Positions 36,931 through 45,245 of a DNA stretch of 64,000 bases are shown one piece after another. How positions within the stretch are numbered: the first letter of the stretch is position 1; the number at the start of each line of letters is the position of its first letter. The notes beneath the pieces are model-generated. The model worked only from the letters and a program-made list of their open reading frames with translations, was not told where the DNA came from and searched no databases. The stretch covers positions 603-64,602 of the forward strand of contig JAAZKW010000003.1 in NCBI GenBank assembly GCA_012799635.1, written 5' to 3'. Both the position numbers and the translations under genes were made by a program. This DNA comes from Mollicutes bacterium. GTDB lineage: Bacteria > Bacillota_I > Bacilli_A > RF39 > UBA660.

Positions 36931-38169
36931 ATGATTATTAAACCAAAAGGATGTTATGATTTATCAAAATTTGATGCAAAAATCTATCTTAATATTGAGC
37001 AAATTGTTCATTCATATATGAATGTTTATAACTATAAATATATTAGAACTCCAGTATTTGAAAACAGTGAGCTTTTTAAACGCGGAGTTGGAGAAACTAC
37101 AGACATAGTTCAAAAAGAAACTTATGATTTTACTGATCGTTCTGGAAGAAGTTTAACTTTAAGACCCGAAGGAACTGCAAGTGTAGTTAGAAGTTATATT
37201 GAAAATAAAGATTATGCTGATATAAGACCAATATCAAAATATTATTATATTGGAACTATGTATCGTTATGAAAGACCAGGTCAAGGAAGAAATAGAGAAT
37301 TTACTCAATTTGGAGTTGAAGCCCTAGGTTCTGATGATCCACTAATAGATGCCGAAATAATTTCGTTATCAGTTAATATTTTAAAAGAACTTGGACTTGA
37401 TCCCGTAGTTAAAATTAATAATTTAGGCGGAAAAGAAGACAGAGAAAATTATAAGAAAGCATTGGTTAAGTATTTAAAACCTCATATTAATGATTTTTGT
37501 TCTGATTGTCAAAAAAGAATTAAAACTAATCCTCTTAGAATACTTGATTGTAAAATAGATGATAAAAATGAAATTCTTAAAAAAGCACCTAATGTTTTAG
37601 ATTACCAAAGTAAAGAAAGTCAAGCAAGATTTAAAGATGTTTTACAATATTTAGATTATCTTGATGTTGATTATGAAATTGATTCTAACTTAGTTAGGGG
37701 ACTTGATTATTATGATTATATGGTATATGAACTTCAAGTTGATAATGGCTTAGCATTAGGTGGTGGGGGAAGATATAATAACCTTGTTAAAACTCTGGAT
37801 GGTCCCGATACGCCAGCCGTTGGATTTGCTTGTGGTATTGAAAGAATCATTAATCTTATCAAAGAGAAGGCAAAAGATTTTTCAAATATAGATGTCTTTA
37901 TTATGGCAATTAATAAAGAAGAAAAAATGAAAGCTAATATTATTATGCAAGATTTAAGACTAAATGGAATATCTGTGGAAACTGATTATTTAAATAAAGG
38001 TTTAAAATCACAGTTTAAAGATGCTGATAAATATAATGCTAAAAATTTAATAATATTAAATAGTGAAGATCTTAAAAAGGGATTAATAAATGTCAAAGAT
38101 AATATAACAAAAGAAGAGGTTAAAGTTCCTGAAGATGAGATAGTTGATTATATCTTAGGAATTATTTAG
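36931..38169 (+). CDS. hisS: histidyl-tRNA synthetase
   Basis: Class II HisRS motifs (LRPEGTA, YYIGTMYRYERPQ-like, GGGRYNNL, GFACGIERI). Confidence 0.95.
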   Translation: MIIKPKGCYDLSKFDAKIYLNIEQIVHSYMNVYNYKYIRTPVFENSELFKRGVGETTDIVQKETYDFTDRSGRSLTLRPEGTASVVRSYIENKDYADIRPISKYYYIGTMYRYERPGQGRNREFTQFGVEALGSDDPLIDAEIISLSVNILKELGLDPVVKINNLGGKEDRENYKKALVKYLKPHINDFCSDCQKRIKTNPLRILDCKIDDKNEILKKAPNVLDYQSKESQARFKDVLQYLDYLDVDYEIDSNLVRGLDYYDYMVYELQVDNGLALGGGGRYNNLVKTLDGPDTPAVGFACGIERIINLIKEKAKDFSNIDVFIMAINKEEKMKANIIMQDLRLNGISVETDYLNKGLKSQFKDADKYNAKNLIILNSEDLKKGLINVKDNITKEEVKVPEDEIVDYILGII

Positions 38170-38177
38170 GAGGATTT

Positions 38178-39542
38178 ATGGATATTAAAGATTTACTTAA
38201 AGATGCTGATAAGTATTTAGCAAAAGAAGTCAAAATAGAAGGGTGGATTAAAAGTCATAGAACTCAAAAAGAATTTGGTTTTATTAATTTAAATGATGGA
38301 ACTAATCAGAATGGGATTCAAGTTGTTTATGATAAAAATATAAAAGATTTTAATAATATTATTAAAATTCTTATTGGAAGTGCTGTAGGTATAACTGGCA
38401 TATTAGTTAAATCTGAAGGCTCAGGACAAGAATATGAATTAAAAGCAAATAAAATAGAGGTATATGGTTTATGTCCTGATGATTTTCCTCTACAAGCTAA
38501 AGGAAGACCAACTAGAGAATTTTTAAGAGAAATAGCTCATTTAAGACCTAGAACTAACTTATTTAGAGCTGTTTTTAAAATTAGAAGTGTCACTTCTCAA
38601 TTAATACATGAATATTTTCAAGATAGAAATTATGTATATGTTCATACACCACTTATAACAACCTCTGATTGTGAAGGTTCTGAACAAATGTTTAGATTAA
38701 CAACTCTTGATCCTTTAAAAGAAAATAAAGATTATAGTAAAGATTTATTTGGTAAAGAAGTATTTATTACTGGTTCAGGACAACTTCATGGAGAAACGTT
38801 TGCGATGGCATATAAAAAGATATATACTTTTGGGCCTACATTTAGAACAGAAAATTCTAATACCAAAACTCATGCTAATGAATTTTGGATGATTGAACCA
38901 GAGATTGCTTTTTGTGATTTAGATGGTCTTATGGATATTGAAGAAGATATGCTTAAATTTATTGTATCTGAAGTTTTAAAAAGATGTCCTGATGAAATAG
39001 ACTTTTTAAATAATTATGTTGATAATAATTTAAGAAAGAAGCTAGAAAAATTAGTTAAGTCTAAGTTTACTAGAATAAATCATAAAGATGTCATTGACAT
39101 TTTATTAAAAGCTCCGAATAAATGGGAGTTTACTCCTAAATATGATGGTGATATTGCTAAAGAGCATGAAAAATATATTACAAATTATTTTGATGGACCA
39201 GTATTTATTACTAATTGGCCTAAAGATATTAAAGCTTGGTATATGAAACAAAATGATGATGGAAAAACAGTTGCTGCGGTAGATTTACAAGTACCTGGAG
39301 CAGGAGAACTCATTGGAGGCTCTCAAAGAGAAGAGAATATGGACAAACTAATTAGAAAAATAAAAGAAGATAATATTGACTTAAATACAGTTGATTGGTT
39401 TGTTGCTTTAAGAAAATATGGTACATGTGTTCATTCTGGTTTTGGAATGGGATTTGAAAGATTAATTATTTATTTAACTGGTATTGACAATATTAGAGAT
39501 GTTATACCATTTCCTAGAACTCCAGGATCTTGTGAATATTAG
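38178..39542 (+). CDS. asnS: asparaginyl-tRNA synthetase
   Basis: FRTENSNTKTHANEFWMIEPE and GFGMGFERL are AsnRS signatures. OB-fold N-terminus. Confidence 0.92.
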   Translation: MDIKDLLKDADKYLAKEVKIEGWIKSHRTQKEFGFINLNDGTNQNGIQVVYDKNIKDFNNIIKILIGSAVGITGILVKSEGSGQEYELKANKIEVYGLCPDDFPLQAKGRPTREFLREIAHLRPRTNLFRAVFKIRSVTSQLIHEYFQDRNYVYVHTPLITTSDCEGSEQMFRLTTLDPLKENKDYSKDLFGKEVFITGSGQLHGETFAMAYKKIYTFGPTFRTENSNTKTHANEFWMIEPEIAFCDLDGLMDIEEDMLKFIVSEVLKRCPDEIDFLNNYVDNNLRKKLEKLVKSKFTRINHKDVIDILLKAPNKWEFTPKYDGDIAKEHEKYITNYFDGPVFITNWPKDIKAWYMKQNDDGKTVAAVDLQVPGAGELIGGSQREENMDKLIRKIKEDNIDLNTVDWFVALRKYGTCVHSGFGMGFERLIIYLTGIDNIRDVIPFPRTPGSCEY

Positions 39543-39553
39543 AAAGGATTATT

Positions 39554-39844
39554 ATGATTACAAAAGAGCAAATAATAAAACTAGCTGATGATCTTTTAAT
39601 TGCTTTAAATAAAGAAGAAATAACTGATTTACTAAATGATTTTAAAGCTTTAAAAGAAAGGATGAAATTAATAAACAATGTTAAGGGACTTAAAAAAACA
39701 GATATCTTAAGTTTCCCTCAAGATATAAAAACAACTGTTTTAAGAGATGATAAAGATGTAGCTAATATTTCTACTACTGATGCTTTAAAAAACTCATCAA
39801 ACGCTTATGAAGACATAATAGAAGTACCCAAGGTGGTGGGATAA
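39554..39844 (+). CDS. gatC: Asp/Glu-tRNA amidotransferase subunit C
   Basis: 96-aa protein immediately upstream of gatA with a 1-nt TAATG overlap. GatC-like sequence. Confidence 0.85.
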   Translation: MITKEQIIKLADDLLIALNKEEITDLLNDFKALKERMKLINNVKGLKKTDILSFPQDIKTTVLRDDKDVANISTTDALKNSSNAYEDIIEVPKVVG

Positions 39845-41079
39845 TGAAATACTTAGATAAAGACATATTATTTGTTTTTAATGCTTTAAAAAAGAATGAT
39901 ATATCAAAAGAAAAGTTTAAAAAAGAAGCATTAGATAATATTAAGGATACTAATATTTTTAAATTAATTAATGATAAAATAAATTACCCTGATACTGATA
40001 ATATATTATCATGTATTCCATATACACTTAAAGATAATATATCAACTAAAGATATTATAACTACTGCAGGATTAAATACACTTAAAAATTATGTTCCTGT
40101 ATATAATGCAACTTGTTATGAAAAATTGAGTAGTAAAGGTGCTATTATGATTGGAAAACCTATTAGGGATGAACTGGAAACAAGTGTTAAAAAAGATCTC
40201 GTTTCTTATGCAATTGGTACTGATACTTTTGGTGAAATAAGAAATACTAGTGTCGTTGGCTATAAACCTAGTTATGGTCTTATTTCACGCTATGGGGTAT
40301 TTGCTTATGCATCATCATTTGATCATGTAGGAATATATGCTAAAAATGTGCTTGATGCTACATTAGTAGTAGATGAAATAAAGGGATATGATAAAAAAGA
40401 TATGACCTCTATTAATGATATGGATGATATTAAATTAAAAGATTATCTTAATAATAATGTTAATGGTAAAAAAATATTTTATATTAAAGAATTAATTAAT
40501 GATCAACATTATATGAAAGAAATAATTGATAAAATTAAAACGCTTGGTATTGAAATTTATGAAGAAAGCATAGATATCAATTTACTTAATGCTATTAAAC
40601 CAGTACATGATATGATATCTTTAGCAGAATTATCAAGTAATACTTCCAATTTAACAGGAATTATATTTGGTGATGCTAACAAAAATGGTAATATTAATGA
40701 TATGATGAAAAAACATCGTAGTGAAAGTCTTACATCTACTATGAAAAGAAAATTAATAATGGGTTCATATATCCTTCAAAAAGAAAATATAAATAATTAT
40801 TTTATTAATGCAAAAAAAGTAAGAAGGTTAATTGTTAATACCTTTAATAATTTGTTTAATAATTATGATGCTCTTATTTTACCCATCTTGTCAAATAAAG
40901 ATAATAATTCTAATAATCATTTATTAATAGGAAATTTAGGAGGCTATCCATCGATTACTGTTAATATAAATAAAATGCCAATTAGTGTTAATATTACTGG
41001 TAAATATAAAGAAGATGGGAAAGCGCTTAATATAGCTTCTTATATCGAGAAGTTATTTAATAAGGAGGATAAAAAATGA
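39844..41079 (+). CDS. gatA: GatA-like amidotransferase subunit A lacking the amidase-signature serines (predicted glutaminase-inactive)
   Basis: Aligns with GatA throughout (LKDNI, GYKPSYGLISRYG, ASSFDHVG), but is 411 aa versus ~485. The GGSSGGSAAAV block is deleted, and GSDTGGSIR reads GTDTFGEIR (nt ~40156-40251). Confidence 0.8.
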   Translation: MKYLDKDILFVFNALKKNDISKEKFKKEALDNIKDTNIFKLINDKINYPDTDNILSCIPYTLKDNISTKDIITTAGLNTLKNYVPVYNATCYEKLSSKGAIMIGKPIRDELETSVKKDLVSYAIGTDTFGEIRNTSVVGYKPSYGLISRYGVFAYASSFDHVGIYAKNVLDATLVVDEIKGYDKKDMTSINDMDDIKLKDYLNNNVNGKKIFYIKELINDQHYMKEIIDKIKTLGIEIYEESIDINLLNAIKPVHDMISLAELSSNTSNLTGIIFGDANKNGNINDMMKKHRSESLTSTMKRKLIMGSYILQKENINNYFINAKKVRRLIVNTFNNLFNNYDALILPILSNKDNNSNNHLLIGNLGGYPSITVNINKMPISVNITGKYKEDGKALNIASYIEKLFNKEDKK

Positions 41080-42506
41080 AATATCAAGTAGTTATTGGTC
41101 TTGAAATGCATTGTGAACTTAAAAGTAACTCAAAAGTTTTTTCTCCAGCATCAAATATATATTCTAAGAAAGCTAATATTAATATAAATGAAGTATGTTT
41201 AGCATTTCCTGGAATTTTACCTTCACTTAATTATAAAAGTGTTTACGATGCAATTAAAATGGCTATAATTCTAAATTGTAAAATACCTAAATATATGATC
41301 TTTGATCGTAAAAATTATTTTTATCCCGATCTTCCAAAAGGTTATCAAATTACTCAAAATACTCATCCTGTGGGTACCAAAGGAAATATAGATATAATAG
41401 TTAATGGTACTAAGAAAAATATTACTATTCAAGATATTCATTTAGAAGAAGATACAGCAGCTTTAGACCACTTAGAAGAAGTTTCTCTACTTGATTATAA
41501 CAGAGCAGGCATTCCTCTTTTAGAATGTGTTACAGACCCTTGTTTATCATCTGCTGAAGAAGCTGCAGCATTTATAGAAACAATGATAAAAATATATCAA
41601 TATACTGGTATTTCAGATGCTGATACTAAAAAAGGACAAATTAGATGTGATGTTAATATAAGTCTTAAAGATGATAAAGACAATTTTGTAACCCCTAGAG
41701 TAGAAGTTAAGAATGTTAACTCAATAGCTAATGTAAAAAATGCCATTATTTATGAAGAAGCAAGACAAATAAAAGCTTTAGAAAATAATCCTTCTTCTTT
41801 AGTAGGCGAAACAAGACGATATGATGAAAGTTTAAATGAAACAGTATTTATGCGCTTTAAAGAAGATGATATCGATTATAAATATTTTATAGAACCTAAT
41901 ATTCCACCATTTGAAATTACTACTGATTTAATAAATGAGATAAAAAAAGATATCCCTGTTTTAGCAAATGAAAGAAAAGATTATTATTTAAATAATTTAT
42001 TATTAGATGAAGAAAACGTTAACATTCTTATTAAAGATATCGACACAGCTAATTATTTTGAAAAATGTATTGATATTGGAATTAATCATAAAGAAGCAGC
42101 TAATTGGATAAATGGAATAATACTATCATACCTTAATAAAGAAAGCCTAAGTATTAATGAATTTTTTTTAAAACCAGAATATTTAAAGCAAATATTAGAT
42201 GCCATGACAGAAAATATTATTTCCTCTAAACAGGCTAAAGAAATATTTTATAAAGCACTAGAAAATAAAAAAGAACCCAAAGAGTTTATTTCAAAAGAAA
42301 ATACTCAAATATCAGATGATAAGGAACTTAATGATATAATTTCTAAGATTCTTAATAATTCTGAAGAACAAATAAAAGAATATCACAATGGAAAAACAAA
42401 TCTTTTTGATTATTTTGTAGGCCAAGTAATGAAAGAAACTAGAGGAAAAGCTAATCCTAATCTTACTAAAGATATCTTAACTAATAAATTAAATAAATTA
42501 AAATAA
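41076..42506 (+). CDS. gatB: Asp/Glu-tRNA amidotransferase subunit B
   Basis: VIGLEMHCELK, DRKNYFYPDLPKGYQITQ and HLEEDTA motifs. ATGA overlap with gatA. Confidence 0.95.
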   Translation: MKYQVVIGLEMHCELKSNSKVFSPASNIYSKKANININEVCLAFPGILPSLNYKSVYDAIKMAIILNCKIPKYMIFDRKNYFYPDLPKGYQITQNTHPVGTKGNIDIIVNGTKKNITIQDIHLEEDTAALDHLEEVSLLDYNRAGIPLLECVTDPCLSSAEEAAAFIETMIKIYQYTGISDADTKKGQIRCDVNISLKDDKDNFVTPRVEVKNVNSIANVKNAIIYEEARQIKALENNPSSLVGETRRYDESLNETVFMRFKEDDIDYKYFIEPNIPPFEITTDLINEIKKDIPVLANERKDYYLNNLLLDEENVNILIKDIDTANYFEKCIDIGINHKEAANWINGIILSYLNKESLSINEFFLKPEYLKQILDAMTENIISSKQAKEIFYKALENKKEPKEFISKENTQISDDKELNDIISKILNNSEEQIKEYHNGKTNLFDYFVGQVMKETRGKANPNLTKDILTNKLNKLK

Positions 42507-42534
42507 TTAGTTTATTTTATATTTTTAAATATTA

Positions 42535-42543
42535 TGTTATAAT
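42535..42543 (+). promoter_or_regulatory. extended -10 promoter (TGtTATAAT) of the candidate sRNA
   Basis: TGTTATAAT at 42535-42543. G42550, 7 nt downstream, is the first base of the long helix. Confidence 0.5.
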
Positions 42544-42549
42544 TAAGAT

Positions 42550-42718
42550 GCTTAGAGATAGTTTATTAGTATATAAAACCGACAAAGATAAAATAAGGGA
42601 GTCTAATGGATTTACGGTGTGAAAACTTAATTTAATTAAGGATCCTAAAGTAATCTTGTGACTTACCACCTGCGAAGAGCGGGCTTTATCAACGATAGAC
42701 TTTCTTTAAGCATTTTTT
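42550..42718 (+). ncRNA. candidate 6S-like RNA (rod-shaped ~169-nt RNA upstream of tcdA)
   Basis: 42550-42580 pairs with 42682-42711: 17 consecutive positions with one mismatch and three G.U, then 9 more pairs. Internal bubbles, an inner imperfect stem, and T6 at 42713-42718. Same position (upstream of the yrvM/tcdA homologue, downstream of the hisS operon) as Bacillus subtilis bsrA/6S-1. Confidence 0.45.
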
Positions 42719-42730
42719 ATAGAGGTAGTT

Positions 42731-43390
42731 ATGAATGAAAGATTAATTGGTTTAATTGATACCAAAAAACTAAGTAAATTTAATATTTTACTAGTTGGAG
42801 TAGGTGGGGTGGGTTCCGCTTGTTTTGAAGTTTTAATAAGAAGCGGAATTAAAAATATTACAATAGTAGACTTTGATACATATGAAGAAAGTAACTTAAA
42901 TAGGCAACTACATTCTAACTTAAACGTGATTGGTAAAAAGAAAATTGATGTCCTTAAAAATTTTGCTAATACCCTTCCTCTTGATATAAAAGTTAATTCC
43001 GTTGATGTCTTTTTAGATAGTTCTAGTAATTTAAACTTTAATAAATATGATTATATTATTGATGCCTGTGATACTATTGAAGCCAAGGTTTATTTAGTTA
43101 AAAAAGCTTTAGAATTAAATAAGAAAATTATTTCTTCGATGGGTGTTGGTAATAGAATAAATCCTCACGATCTTGGAGTTTTTAAACTTTCCAAAACGTC
43201 TAATGATCCATTAGCAAAAAAATTTAAGCTTGCATTAAAAAAAGAAGGAATAACTAAAGATGTAATTGTAGTTGCATCAAATGAATTGCCCATTAAAAAG
43301 ACCCCAGTATCATCTTATATAGGTGTTTCTCTTGTAAGTGGGGTTCTTTTAGCAGACTATGTAATTAAGGATTTATTAAATGAAAATTAA
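42731..43390 (+). CDS. tcdA: ThiF/MoeB-family protein, tRNA threonylcarbamoyladenosine dehydratase-like (TcdA/YrvM)
   Basis: LLVGVGGVGSACFEVL...VDFDTYEESNLNRQLHS dinucleotide and adenylation motifs, no C-terminal rhodanese domain, size close to TcdA. Confidence 0.7.
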   Translation: MNERLIGLIDTKKLSKFNILLVGVGGVGSACFEVLIRSGIKNITIVDFDTYEESNLNRQLHSNLNVIGKKKIDVLKNFANTLPLDIKVNSVDVFLDSSSNLNFNKYDYIIDACDTIEAKVYLVKKALELNKKIISSMGVGNRINPHDLGVFKLSKTSNDPLAKKFKLALKKEGITKDVIVVASNELPIKKTPVSSYIGVSLVSGVLLADYVIKDLLNEN

Positions 43391-45245
43391 AGATATAAAA
43401 AATAGTAAGTTTTTAAAAGATTATGATATTAATAAACTTTTAAAACTTTCTTCTGACATGAGAAAATTTATATTAGAAAAAGTGTCTCAAAATGGAGGAC
43501 ACTTGTCATCTAATTTAGGTATTATTGAACTAACAATTGCACTTCTTAAAATATTTGATGAAGAACAAGATGTCTTTTTATTTGATGTTGGTCATAACTC
43601 ATATCCATATAAGATATTAACAGGAAGAGCAAAAGAATTTGATAGTTTAAGAAAATTAAATGGTTTATCAGGATTTCAATCTAAAAGCGAATCTAAAGTA
43701 GACTATTATGAAACAGGGCACTCATCAACATCAATTTCTACCGGAATTGGATATGCTATCGCAAGAGATATAGATAAAAGAAATAAAAGAAATATCATAT
43801 CCGTTATTGGCGATGGCTCTATTAGTAATGGGCTAGCATATGAAGCTTTAAATCATTTAGGTGATCTTAAAACAAAACAAATAATCATTTTAAACGATAA
43901 TCAAATGAGTATTTCTAAAAACGTAGGAGCAATACATAATATGTTAGATAGTATAAGAGCAGGTAAAAGCTATAATAAGGCAAAAAAGAATACTAAGAAA
44001 CTACTAGGTAATACTAAATTTGGTAGAAAAATTGAAAAGTTTTTAGAAAATATTAAAAATAATTTAAAGAAAATTTATCTAAAAGAAGGAACGCTCTTTA
44101 GTGATTTTGGTGTTGAATATTATGGTCCAATAGATGGACATGATTATAAAGAACTGCTGCATTATTTACAAATAGTTAAAAATGAAGAAAAACCGGTTTT
44201 ATTACATGTTATCACTGTTAAAGGAAAAGGATATTCTTTTGCCGAAGAAGATGATGTTGGTGCTTTTCATGGGATTGGAACATTTAATCTTTTAACTGGA
44301 AAAGAAAAAATAAAGAACACTCTTCCTTCATATAGTGAAATAATTAGCACTTATCTATATAAATTTATGAAAAAAGATGATGATATTATGTGCATAACTC
44401 CAGGAATGTGCTATGGTTCTAAATTAGGCATTATAAAAGAAAAGCTACCAAAAAACTTTATTGATGTTGGAATAGCCGAAGAACATGGTTTAGTACTTGC
44501 TAATGGTCTTGCTTTGGCAGGAAAAAAACCATATATATTTATTTATTCTACCTTCTTTCAAAGAGGATATGATCAAATAGTTCATGATATTGCAAGATGT
44601 AATTCTGATGTAACAATAATGATAGATAGGGCAGGTTTAGTACCAAGCGATGGCCCATCACATCAAGGTGTATTTGATATACCTATGATGCTTAGTATTC
44701 CAAATATAATTATTACCATGCCTAAAGATGCTCAAGAAGCTAATGATTTAATATACACATCATTAAATTATATTGGACCATTTATTATAAGATATCCGAA
44801 AATTAATATTGAAAATAATTATAATAAAGCACAATTATTAAAAATTGGTTCATGGGAAATACTTACAAAAGGAAATGACGGTTATATAATATCTTATGGT
44901 CCTTTTATTGAAAAAGCTTTAAATATAACAAATAAACTAAAAAAAGATAATATTAAATTATCTGTTATAAATGCTAGGTTTATTAAACCACTTGATGAAA
45001 AGATGTTAAAAGAAATAATAAAGAATAAAAAACCAATCTTTATATATGAAGAAAGCATGAAAACAGCATCATTAGGAAGTATTATTGCAATTTATTTAAC
45101 TGAAAAAAGATTTAATGGAATATTCAAAATATTTGGTATTGAAGATACCTTTATTCCTCATGGAAATAGAGAAGAGCTTTTAAAATTATGTAAGCTTGAT
45201 GAAGATAATATCTATATAAATATTAAAAAATATTTTAAAAAATAA
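43380..45245 (+). CDS. dxs: 1-deoxy-D-xylulose-5-phosphate synthase
   Basis: GGHLSSNLG, GHSSTSIS, IGDGSISNGLAYEALN and EEHGLV motifs. 621 aa. Confidence 0.93.
   Translation: MKIKDIKNSKFLKDYDINKLLKLSSDMRKFILEKVSQNGGHLSSNLGIIELTIALLKIFDEEQDVFLFDVGHNSYPYKILTGRAKEFDSLRKLNGLSGFQSKSESKVDYYETGHSSTSISTGIGYAIARDIDKRNKRNIISVIGDGSISNGLAYEALNHLGDLKTKQIIILNDNQMSISKNVGAIHNMLDSIRAGKSYNKAKKNTKKLLGNTKFGRKIEKFLENIKNNLKKIYLKEGTLFSDFGVEYYGPIDGHDYKELLHYLQIVKNEEKPVLLHVITVKGKGYSFAEEDDVGAFHGIGTFNLLTGKEKIKNTLPSYSEIISTYLYKFMKKDDDIMCITPGMCYGSKLGIIKEKLPKNFIDVGIAEEHGLVLANGLALAGKKPYIFIYSTFFQRGYDQIVHDIARCNSDVTIMIDRAGLVPSDGPSHQGVFDIPMMLSIPNIIITMPKDAQEANDLIYTSLNYIGPFIIRYPKINIENNYNKAQLLKIGSWEILTKGNDGYIISYGPFIEKALNITNKLKKDNIKLSVINARFIKPLDEKMLKEIIKNKKPIFIYEESMKTASLGSIIAIYLTEKRFNGIFKIFGIEDTFIPHGNREELLKLCKLDEDNIYINIKKYFKK

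Follow-up and report, generated by a model that had tools for sequence, protein, structure and literature searches.

In every bacterium without a glutaminyl-tRNA synthetase (GlnRS), GatCAB is treated as an essential, glutamine-dependent enzyme of three subunits, and in a study of the minimal translation machinery of Mollicutes all three count as indispensable where there is no GlnRS (PMC4014445). Folding of GatA depends on GatC, which also links GatA with GatB (PMC2330236, PMC4027206), and an arginine of GatA (R358 in Staphylococcus aureus) binds the carboxylate of glutamine (PMC4027206). The yeast mitochondrial counterpart, GatFAB, transamidates without recourse to its glutaminase when given 20 mM NH4Cl, and this reaction is faster in a mutant in which the GatA site is destabilised (PMC4027206). 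Here we analyse a stretch of 64,000 nt (the window, to whose positions all coordinates without a contig name refer) from contig JAAZKW010000003.1 of the uncultured Mollicutes bacterium GCA_012799635.1, a genome bin of 1.15 Mb with 25% G+C in 61 contigs, estimated to be 88.65% complete. Its gatA gene (39844..41079, + strand, 411 aa) lies between gatC and gatB as in the canonical operon, and its product has lost the glutaminase active site. We give even chances to the reading that this GatA is a pseudoenzyme, no longer able to bind or hydrolyse glutamine, and serves as a scaffold in a GatCAB that works on free ammonia.

The active-site residues were located by HMMER alignment to S. aureus GatA (2df4_A) and by MAFFT alignments with 8 and with 51 relatives. 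The lysine of the Ser-cisSer-Lys triad is kept, K63 (codon 40030..40032, in LKDNI) pairing with S. aureus K79 by both methods. The cis-serine block is deleted: residues 129-161 of 2df4_A, which include GGSSGGS and S154, stay unpaired between L111 and V115 in the HMMER alignment, and both MAFFT alignments give the same result as a 31-column gap after DEL, which places the missing 31-residue GGSS(A/G)GS block at the junction L111/E112 (40174..40179) and leaves the protein without the GGSS(G/A/S)G amidase signature. At the position of the nucleophile serine, S178, stands E131 (40234..40236), whose GAA codon is at least two base changes away from every serine codon; the motif reads GTDTFGEIR here and G(T/S)DTGDSIR in relatives, and four further residues are missing after its IR. 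An earlier note on this DNA had described the kept lysine, the deleted block and the lost nucleophile from an alignment made by eye, which it held would be overturned if a proper one brought back both serines; that alignment proved correct in every particular, and neither serine is recovered. The residues that bind glutamine are changed as well. The equivalent of R358 is K303 (40750..40752) in both the HMMER and the MAFFT alignments, and the equivalent of D425, which is D or E in relatives, is by motif register probably N357 (40912..40914), with a loop of 13-15 aa deleted directly upstream. Other in-frame deletions relative to the sister species (G001) comprise 4, 11, 15, 3 and 6 aa. The protein passes the gathering score of the Pfam Amidase family PF01425 (179 vs 27 bits) in two stretches that are split at the deletion, its best sequence matches among solved structures in the PDB are all GatA (HMMER, E = 6e-43) and include the GatA chain of every known GatCAB structure, and it falls far short of the gatA equivalog cut-off of TIGR00132 (273 vs 481.1 bits).

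The loss is not an assembly artefact, a possibility which the earlier note had raised, since 10 contigs from independent assemblies encode the identical 411-aa GatA. Two more carry a 98% variant, always in the same operon, and one of the source runs (ERR10905742) consists of PacBio HiFi reads from anaerobic-digester sludge. Nor does the gene have the marks of a pseudogene, as there is no frameshift, premature stop or lost start, and all 411 codons are open on the 12 contigs from two strains, behind a Shine-Dalgarno sequence and an ATG. In the same genus the missing block is present in all 19 genomes with a GatA match, whose frames span 481-498 aa (one being cut by a contig end); the named ones among these relatives are uncultured Bacilli that come from the rumen of sheep and the human gut. 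In two further genomes of the genus, G006 and G011 (bins 88% and 85% complete), gatA, gatB and GlnRS were all not found; the absence of gatA and gatB is probably due to one assembly gap in each, and we do not use it as evidence. In the GatA tree the protein groups within the clade of the genus, where the G001 type is its sister (starred support), and its stem branch is 0.52 vs 0.13 for the sister, and its identity to outgroups is 0.52-0.545 where that of the sister is 0.60-0.67. GatC is also accelerated on this lineage and GatB slightly so, and HisRS and AsnRS (the histidyl- and asparaginyl-tRNA synthetases) have evolved symmetrically in the two species. Among 162 columns that are at least 95% conserved in the 51 relatives, 48 are lost or changed in this GatA (median of the relatives 1, maximum 15). 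Judged from the tree and the alignments, the loss of the active site is lineage-specific and recent.

The reading frame and the fold appear to have been retained under selection. The seven indels that separate gatA from that of the sister all preserve the frame, and no stop has arisen, while simulations of neutral evolution over 160-320 substitutions gave a mean of 9.6-17 stops and left the frame open in 0 of 2000 runs. Changes relative to the sister affect 24% of highly conserved vs 59% of variable columns. The AlphaFold model of the single chain has a mean predicted local distance difference test score (pLDDT) of 84.6 and a predicted template modelling (TM) score of 0.88, and its best fold matches are the GatA chains of GatCAB structures, at TM scores of 0.86-0.88. 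This combination of lost catalytic residues with a frame and a fold kept under selection is that of a pseudoenzyme, with the caveat that the ratio of nonsynonymous to synonymous differences within the species is neutral-like.

The partner subunit that would carry out the amidation is intact. The product of gatB (41076..42506, + strand, 476 aa), the kinase/transamidase subunit, scores 541 bits against NF004012 (cut-off 338) and retains the motifs GLEMH, KNYFYPDLPKGYQ, HLEEDTA and NRAGIPLLE. It differs in 11 of 208 genus-invariant columns (relatives in 1-9), and 1 nonsynonymous and 3 synonymous differences separate the two strains; from these counts, GatB is under normal constraint. The claim in the earlier note that both GatB and GatC look intact therefore holds for GatB, while for GatC only the full length was borne out. 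The gatC gene (39554..39844, + strand, 96 aa) encodes a divergent, fast-evolving protein that reaches 29 bits with TIGR00135 (cut-off 47) and has no match to Pfam GatC in the Pfam profile search. Between the strains gatC has 10 nonsynonymous and 6 synonymous differences, and GatC is 89.6% identical where GatB is 99.8%.

The need for glutamine on tRNA also seems to persist. GlnRS was not found in the 88.65%-complete genome, nor in any of 18 relatives in the genus, and members of the class without GatA do have GlnRS. There is one glutamyl-tRNA synthetase (GluRS) in the genome. The two tRNA-Gln genes (UUG and CUG) both have U1-A72, the identity pair for the amidotransferase, and tRNA-Glu and tRNA-Asn have G1-C72. 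The use of Gln codons is normal, and invariant Gln positions are kept in 18 of 19 cases in HisRS, AsnRS and GatB. Within the limits of the incomplete bin, the active partner is thus intact and the pathway still required, and on these genomic grounds we conclude that the Gln-tRNA amidotransferase pathway is still needed. The suggestion that the pathway might be decaying because a GlnRS is present consequently finds no support. The same applies to the suggestion that another glutaminase stands in for GatA, for which the genome offers no candidate: a second amidase, a PF04960 glutaminase, an asparaginase and glutamine synthetase were all not found, and a genome search gave the CTP synthase PyrG as the only class-I glutamine amidotransferase and AsnB as the only one of class II.

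The GluRS (543 aa; contig C4:15912-17540, minus strand; locus L028 1492-3123) is the only one found, and the GluRS native to the genus was not found. Over its full length it is 53% identical to that of G030, a genome of another family, and 39-41% identical to the GluRS of the 18 genus relatives, which in all of them is 474-491 aa long. The adjoining pyrG is native, with 74-77% identity to the genus, and the genes flanking this foreign GluRS have nothing in common with those in G001, G002 or G030. In the two closest holders of this GluRS type, G030 and G031, GatCAB is present and GlnRS was not found. The anticodon-binding half is best matched by the non-discriminating GluRS2 of the glutamine transamidosome of Thermotoga maritima, and the alignment to 1J09 ends at residue 329, short of the discriminating Arg358 of Thermus thermophilus. 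Since G030 and G031 use GatCAB without GlnRS and since this half resembles T. maritima GluRS2, replacement of the GluRS is on its own no sign of a direct pathway.

A second glutaminase has lost its nucleophile in the same genome. In PyrG, encoded outside the window (C4:13489-15090, minus strand; locus L038), the glutaminase cysteine is replaced by glycine, the nucleophile motif being PFLGIGLGMQ (GIGLGMQ, where G(I/L)C(L/Y)GMQ is usual), with His-x-Glu kept. An identical PyrG is found on seven independent contigs, and the cysteine is kept in three relatives from the genus and nine from the family. Cys379 mutants of Escherichia coli CTP synthase reportedly keep NH3-dependent synthesis of CTP. 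The same change to glycine occurs in G030 (there together with His to Gln), G207 and G226. Both an ammonia-dependent AsnA (C4:6857-7822) and an AsnB with intact Cys2 (C34:31402-33213) are present beside AsnRS. In family f1, to make a side observation on CTP synthase, about 12 of 45 sampled genera have a true match to this enzyme, and the others have weak matches to the glutamine amidotransferase domain or none; the genera without CTP synthase presumably salvage cytidine nucleotides.

Triad-defective GatAs are also encoded in other genomes. In a full-library search with alignment, 32 of the 146 best-scoring GatA representatives, both GatA variants of the present species included, lack at least one triad residue, a proportion that is not a frequency, as the ranking favours proteins without the block. 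The roughly 30 defective cluster representatives among proteins P0122-P0269 lack one to three triad residues, many are without the GGSS block, and the GatA tree requires at least three origins of triad loss. Eight of them form one starred clade in a quick tree, which could be a real, long-lived lineage of dead GatAs or a product of long-branch attraction. A profile search with the block-less GatAs returned mostly canonical GatA of Clostridia and is of little use as a census. One of the defective proteins is P0123 (444 aa; gatA at L056 4305-5639, the locus being L055/L056), in which Lys is replaced by Ser and the cis-Ser block is lost. It lies within a gatC-gatA-gatB-aminoacyl-tRNA synthetase operon of G226 (GCA_050948865.1), a metagenome-assembled genome of Bacilli that is independent of the bin described here and in which GlnRS, another amidase and glutamine synthetase were not found; its PyrG also has glycine for cysteine, so that both losses occur together. 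The triad is intact in 113 of the 115 nearest database relatives of P0123. P0251 (Clostridiaceae type) likewise has gatC and gatB as its flanking genes, and P0159, P0222 and P0235 have Glu at the nucleophile position independently of the GatA described here. Our literature searches yielded no report of a naturally triad-less GatA encoded in a gatCAB operon, and a review of tunnels (PMC8674909) contains nothing about GatCAB.

The gene cluster to which gatA belongs, hisS-asnS-gatC-gatA-gatB, consists of five closely packed genes on the + strand (36931-42506). Its first gene, hisS (36931..38169, +), was assigned from the tRNA-synt_His and HGTP_anticodon domains on the identical gene in other assemblies and has a within-species ratio of nonsynonymous to synonymous substitution rates (dN/dS) of 0.11. 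The following asnS (38178..39542, +; dN/dS 0.07) encodes AsnRS and hence a direct route to Asn-tRNA (NF003037, 580 bits vs a cut-off of 414). A Shine-Dalgarno-like sequence, AAGGTGGTGG (39830..39839, +), precedes gatA, whose start overlaps the gatC stop in TAATG (39842-39846); the gatA stop overlaps the gatB start in ATGA (41076-41079), and the Shine-Dalgarno sequence of gatB, AAGGAGGA (41062..41069, +), is situated within the 3' end of gatA. Reading of the DNA thus agrees with the description, in the earlier note, of an operon with AsnRS and overlapping junctions. Comparison of the window with locus L016 over 36931-45245 gave a mosaic divergence, with synonymous divergence (dS) of 0.05-0.11 in hisS, asnS and gatC and of 0-0.01 from mid-gatA through dxs. 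Because of this mosaic between the strains, the data suggest a recombination boundary in the 5' part of gatA.

The explanation that we consider best is that GatA is a dead scaffold and that GatCAB works on free ammonia, although complex formation, the ammonia donor and the ammonia route are deductions, and we rate the whole as no more and no less probable than its negation. GatA would be made and would fold in a GatA-like manner, and it would probably be kept since GatB needs a GatA-GatC partner to assemble, to stay stable or to position the ammonia path. The single GluRS would charge tRNA-Gln with Glu, and GatB would phosphorylate the Glu-tRNA-Gln and amidate it with free ammonia from the digester sludge, which is an ammonia-rich habitat. 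The way in for the ammonia may be the former glutamine pocket, now truncated, followed by the old tunnel. Of the three explanations offered in the earlier note, this is the one that fits best. It gains support from the parallel Cys to Gly loss in PyrG, and the pair of losses in G226, the sludge habitat of one source run, the ammonia-dependent AsnA and the precedent of yeast GatFAB with NH4Cl speak for it too. The reading of the locus in the earlier note, a glutaminase-dead GatA in a working operon, is likewise supported.

Several observations weigh against it. Between the two strains gatA has 10 nonsynonymous and 1 synonymous codon differences, which is indistinguishable from neutrality, and the contrast with five neighbouring genes (14 nonsynonymous, 35 synonymous) is marked (Fisher p = 0.0002); all eleven gatA differences fall within residues 1-86 and 394-410, bordering a more diverged tract. 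Taken together, the evidence for selection on the GatA protein is mixed but mostly positive. Sequence identity demonstrates that the lineage has taken up its GluRS from elsewhere, which means that synthetase genes are transferred here, and a GlnRS or a second gatCAB could be situated on an unbinned contig, the bin being incomplete. A search of the genome gave no ammonium transporter, the intact cysteine of AsnB means that some process in the cell still consumes glutamine, and relatives in the genus without glutamine synthetase still keep a live GatA. Finally, G030 and G207 pair the Gly form of PyrG with a live GatA, and for this reason the association between dead GatA and dead PyrG is suggestive only.

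Some of these observations would be accounted for if a GlnRS or a second, intact gatCAB were present on DNA outside the bin and the operon copy were losing its function, GatA first. The incompleteness of the bin (88.65%, in 61 contigs), the foreign type of its only GluRS, the neutral-like differences in gatA within the species and the acceleration of GatA and GatC on the lineage are all in line with such decay. It is hard to reconcile with a GatB that is normally constrained and has no sign of decay, with the U1-A72 pair retained in the tRNA-Gln genes, with seven in-frame indels and zero stops in gatA despite more than 160 substitutions, and with the finding of GlnRS in 0 of 18 genus relatives. 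The foreign GluRS is itself of little help to it, as its other holders, G030 and G031, use GatCAB without GlnRS and its anticodon-binding half best matches T. maritima GluRS2, and a second genome, G226, gives the same picture; we consider this reading unlikely. The neutral-like substitutions could also mean that the GatA protein itself does nothing, that GatB acts on ammonia by itself or together with GatC, and that the frame is kept only for carry-through of ribosomes or stability of the mRNA up to gatB. The TAATG and ATGA overlaps would fit this, as would the 48 of 162 highly conserved columns that differ, but gatB owns a strong Shine-Dalgarno site (AAGGAGGA), the other 114 of these columns are kept, change is 2.5-fold lower at conserved than at variable columns, and the predicted fold is confidently GatA-like. 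Furthermore, GatC is known to hold GatA and GatB together, and GatA folds only with GatC (PMC2330236, PMC4027206), which makes a functionless GatA somewhat less plausible still.

The pathway might instead be crippled, with slow amidation and with Glu tolerated at part of the Gln codons, as in mycobacterial gatA hypomorphs. As a rule ammonia is less effective as a donor than nitrogen channelled from glutamine, which speaks for this view, and mycobacterial gatA mutants are said to be viable. Mutants in mycobacterial gatCAB reportedly cause mistranslation (PMC7541841, PMC8406222). On the other hand, Gln usage is unreduced and the invariant Gln sites are kept in the present genome, and this view overlaps the use of free ammonia more than it excludes it; we regard it as distinctly improbable as a separate explanation. 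Least credible in our opinion is the possibility that some other enzyme delivers the nitrogen, or that a remodelled GatA pocket with K63 and E131 acts on or binds a different amide donor. The retention of K63 and the Glu at the nucleophile position in several independent dead GatAs (P0159, P0222, P0235) could be read in its favour, while no glutaminase, amidase or asparaginase that could serve was found in the genome, the glutamine-binding residues are gone together with the oxyanion and cis-Ser loop, and Lys is lost too in other dead GatAs.

Returning to the preferred explanation, GatA as a scaffold for ammonia-dependent amidation, a GatCAB that naturally contains a dead GatA would, if real, imply that the glutaminase half is dispensable in vivo given plentiful ammonia, that the structural role of GatA is separable from catalysis, and that the choice of nitrogen donor in translation and nucleotide synthesis can be switched with the habitat. 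A broader proposal, which we advance tentatively and think rather less likely to be right than wrong, is that small-genome Bacilli without glutamine synthesis in ammonia-rich anaerobic habitats repeatedly convert their glutamine amidotransferases (GatCAB, CTP synthase) to ammonia-only enzymes, GatA becoming a trimmed scaffold whose opened pocket lets ammonia into the tunnel. A loss that is recent and datable, in a species whose sister has the live enzyme, is a convenient natural experiment. There is also a trap for annotation, as dead proteins of this kind carry the names GatA or 'amidase family protein', from which metabolic models go on to assume that glutamine is used.

Compared with canonical GatCAB (S. 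aureus 2DF4/2F2A, T. maritima 3AL0, Aquifex aeolicus 3H0L), the system described here has the same gatC-gatA-gatB order, the GatA fold (TM score 0.86-0.88), an intact GatB, U1-A72 in tRNA-Gln and a GluRS partner, and it differs in a GatA that is 70-87 residues shorter and is without the cis-Ser block, the nucleophile Ser and the glutamine-binding Arg and Asp. Two kinds of short GatA homologues were considered as precedents, the Mycoplasma 'amidase' NF005517 (PRK07139, about 440 aa), which is the second-best NCBIfam match of our GatA, and the GatAs of about 441 aa in family f3. Both belong to gatCAB operons of reduced Bacilli, and both were rejected because the triad is intact, with Lys, GGSS and GSDTG(G/D)S kept and the shortening confined to the N-terminus. 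Yeast mitochondrial GatFAB with a truncated N-terminal domain of GatF is similar in that its glutaminase is compromised and the mutant still uses NH4Cl (PMC4027206), but it is a laboratory mutant with an intact triad, whereas the loss described here is natural and complete. In single-domain NadE (PMC3376133), in AsnA as compared with AsnB and in Cys mutants of CTP synthase, the synthetase part likewise uses free ammonia without a working glutaminase. Those relatives either have no glutaminase or owe its inactivation to laboratory mutation, while in the present operon the dead subunit has been kept as a separate protein that is predicted to fold.

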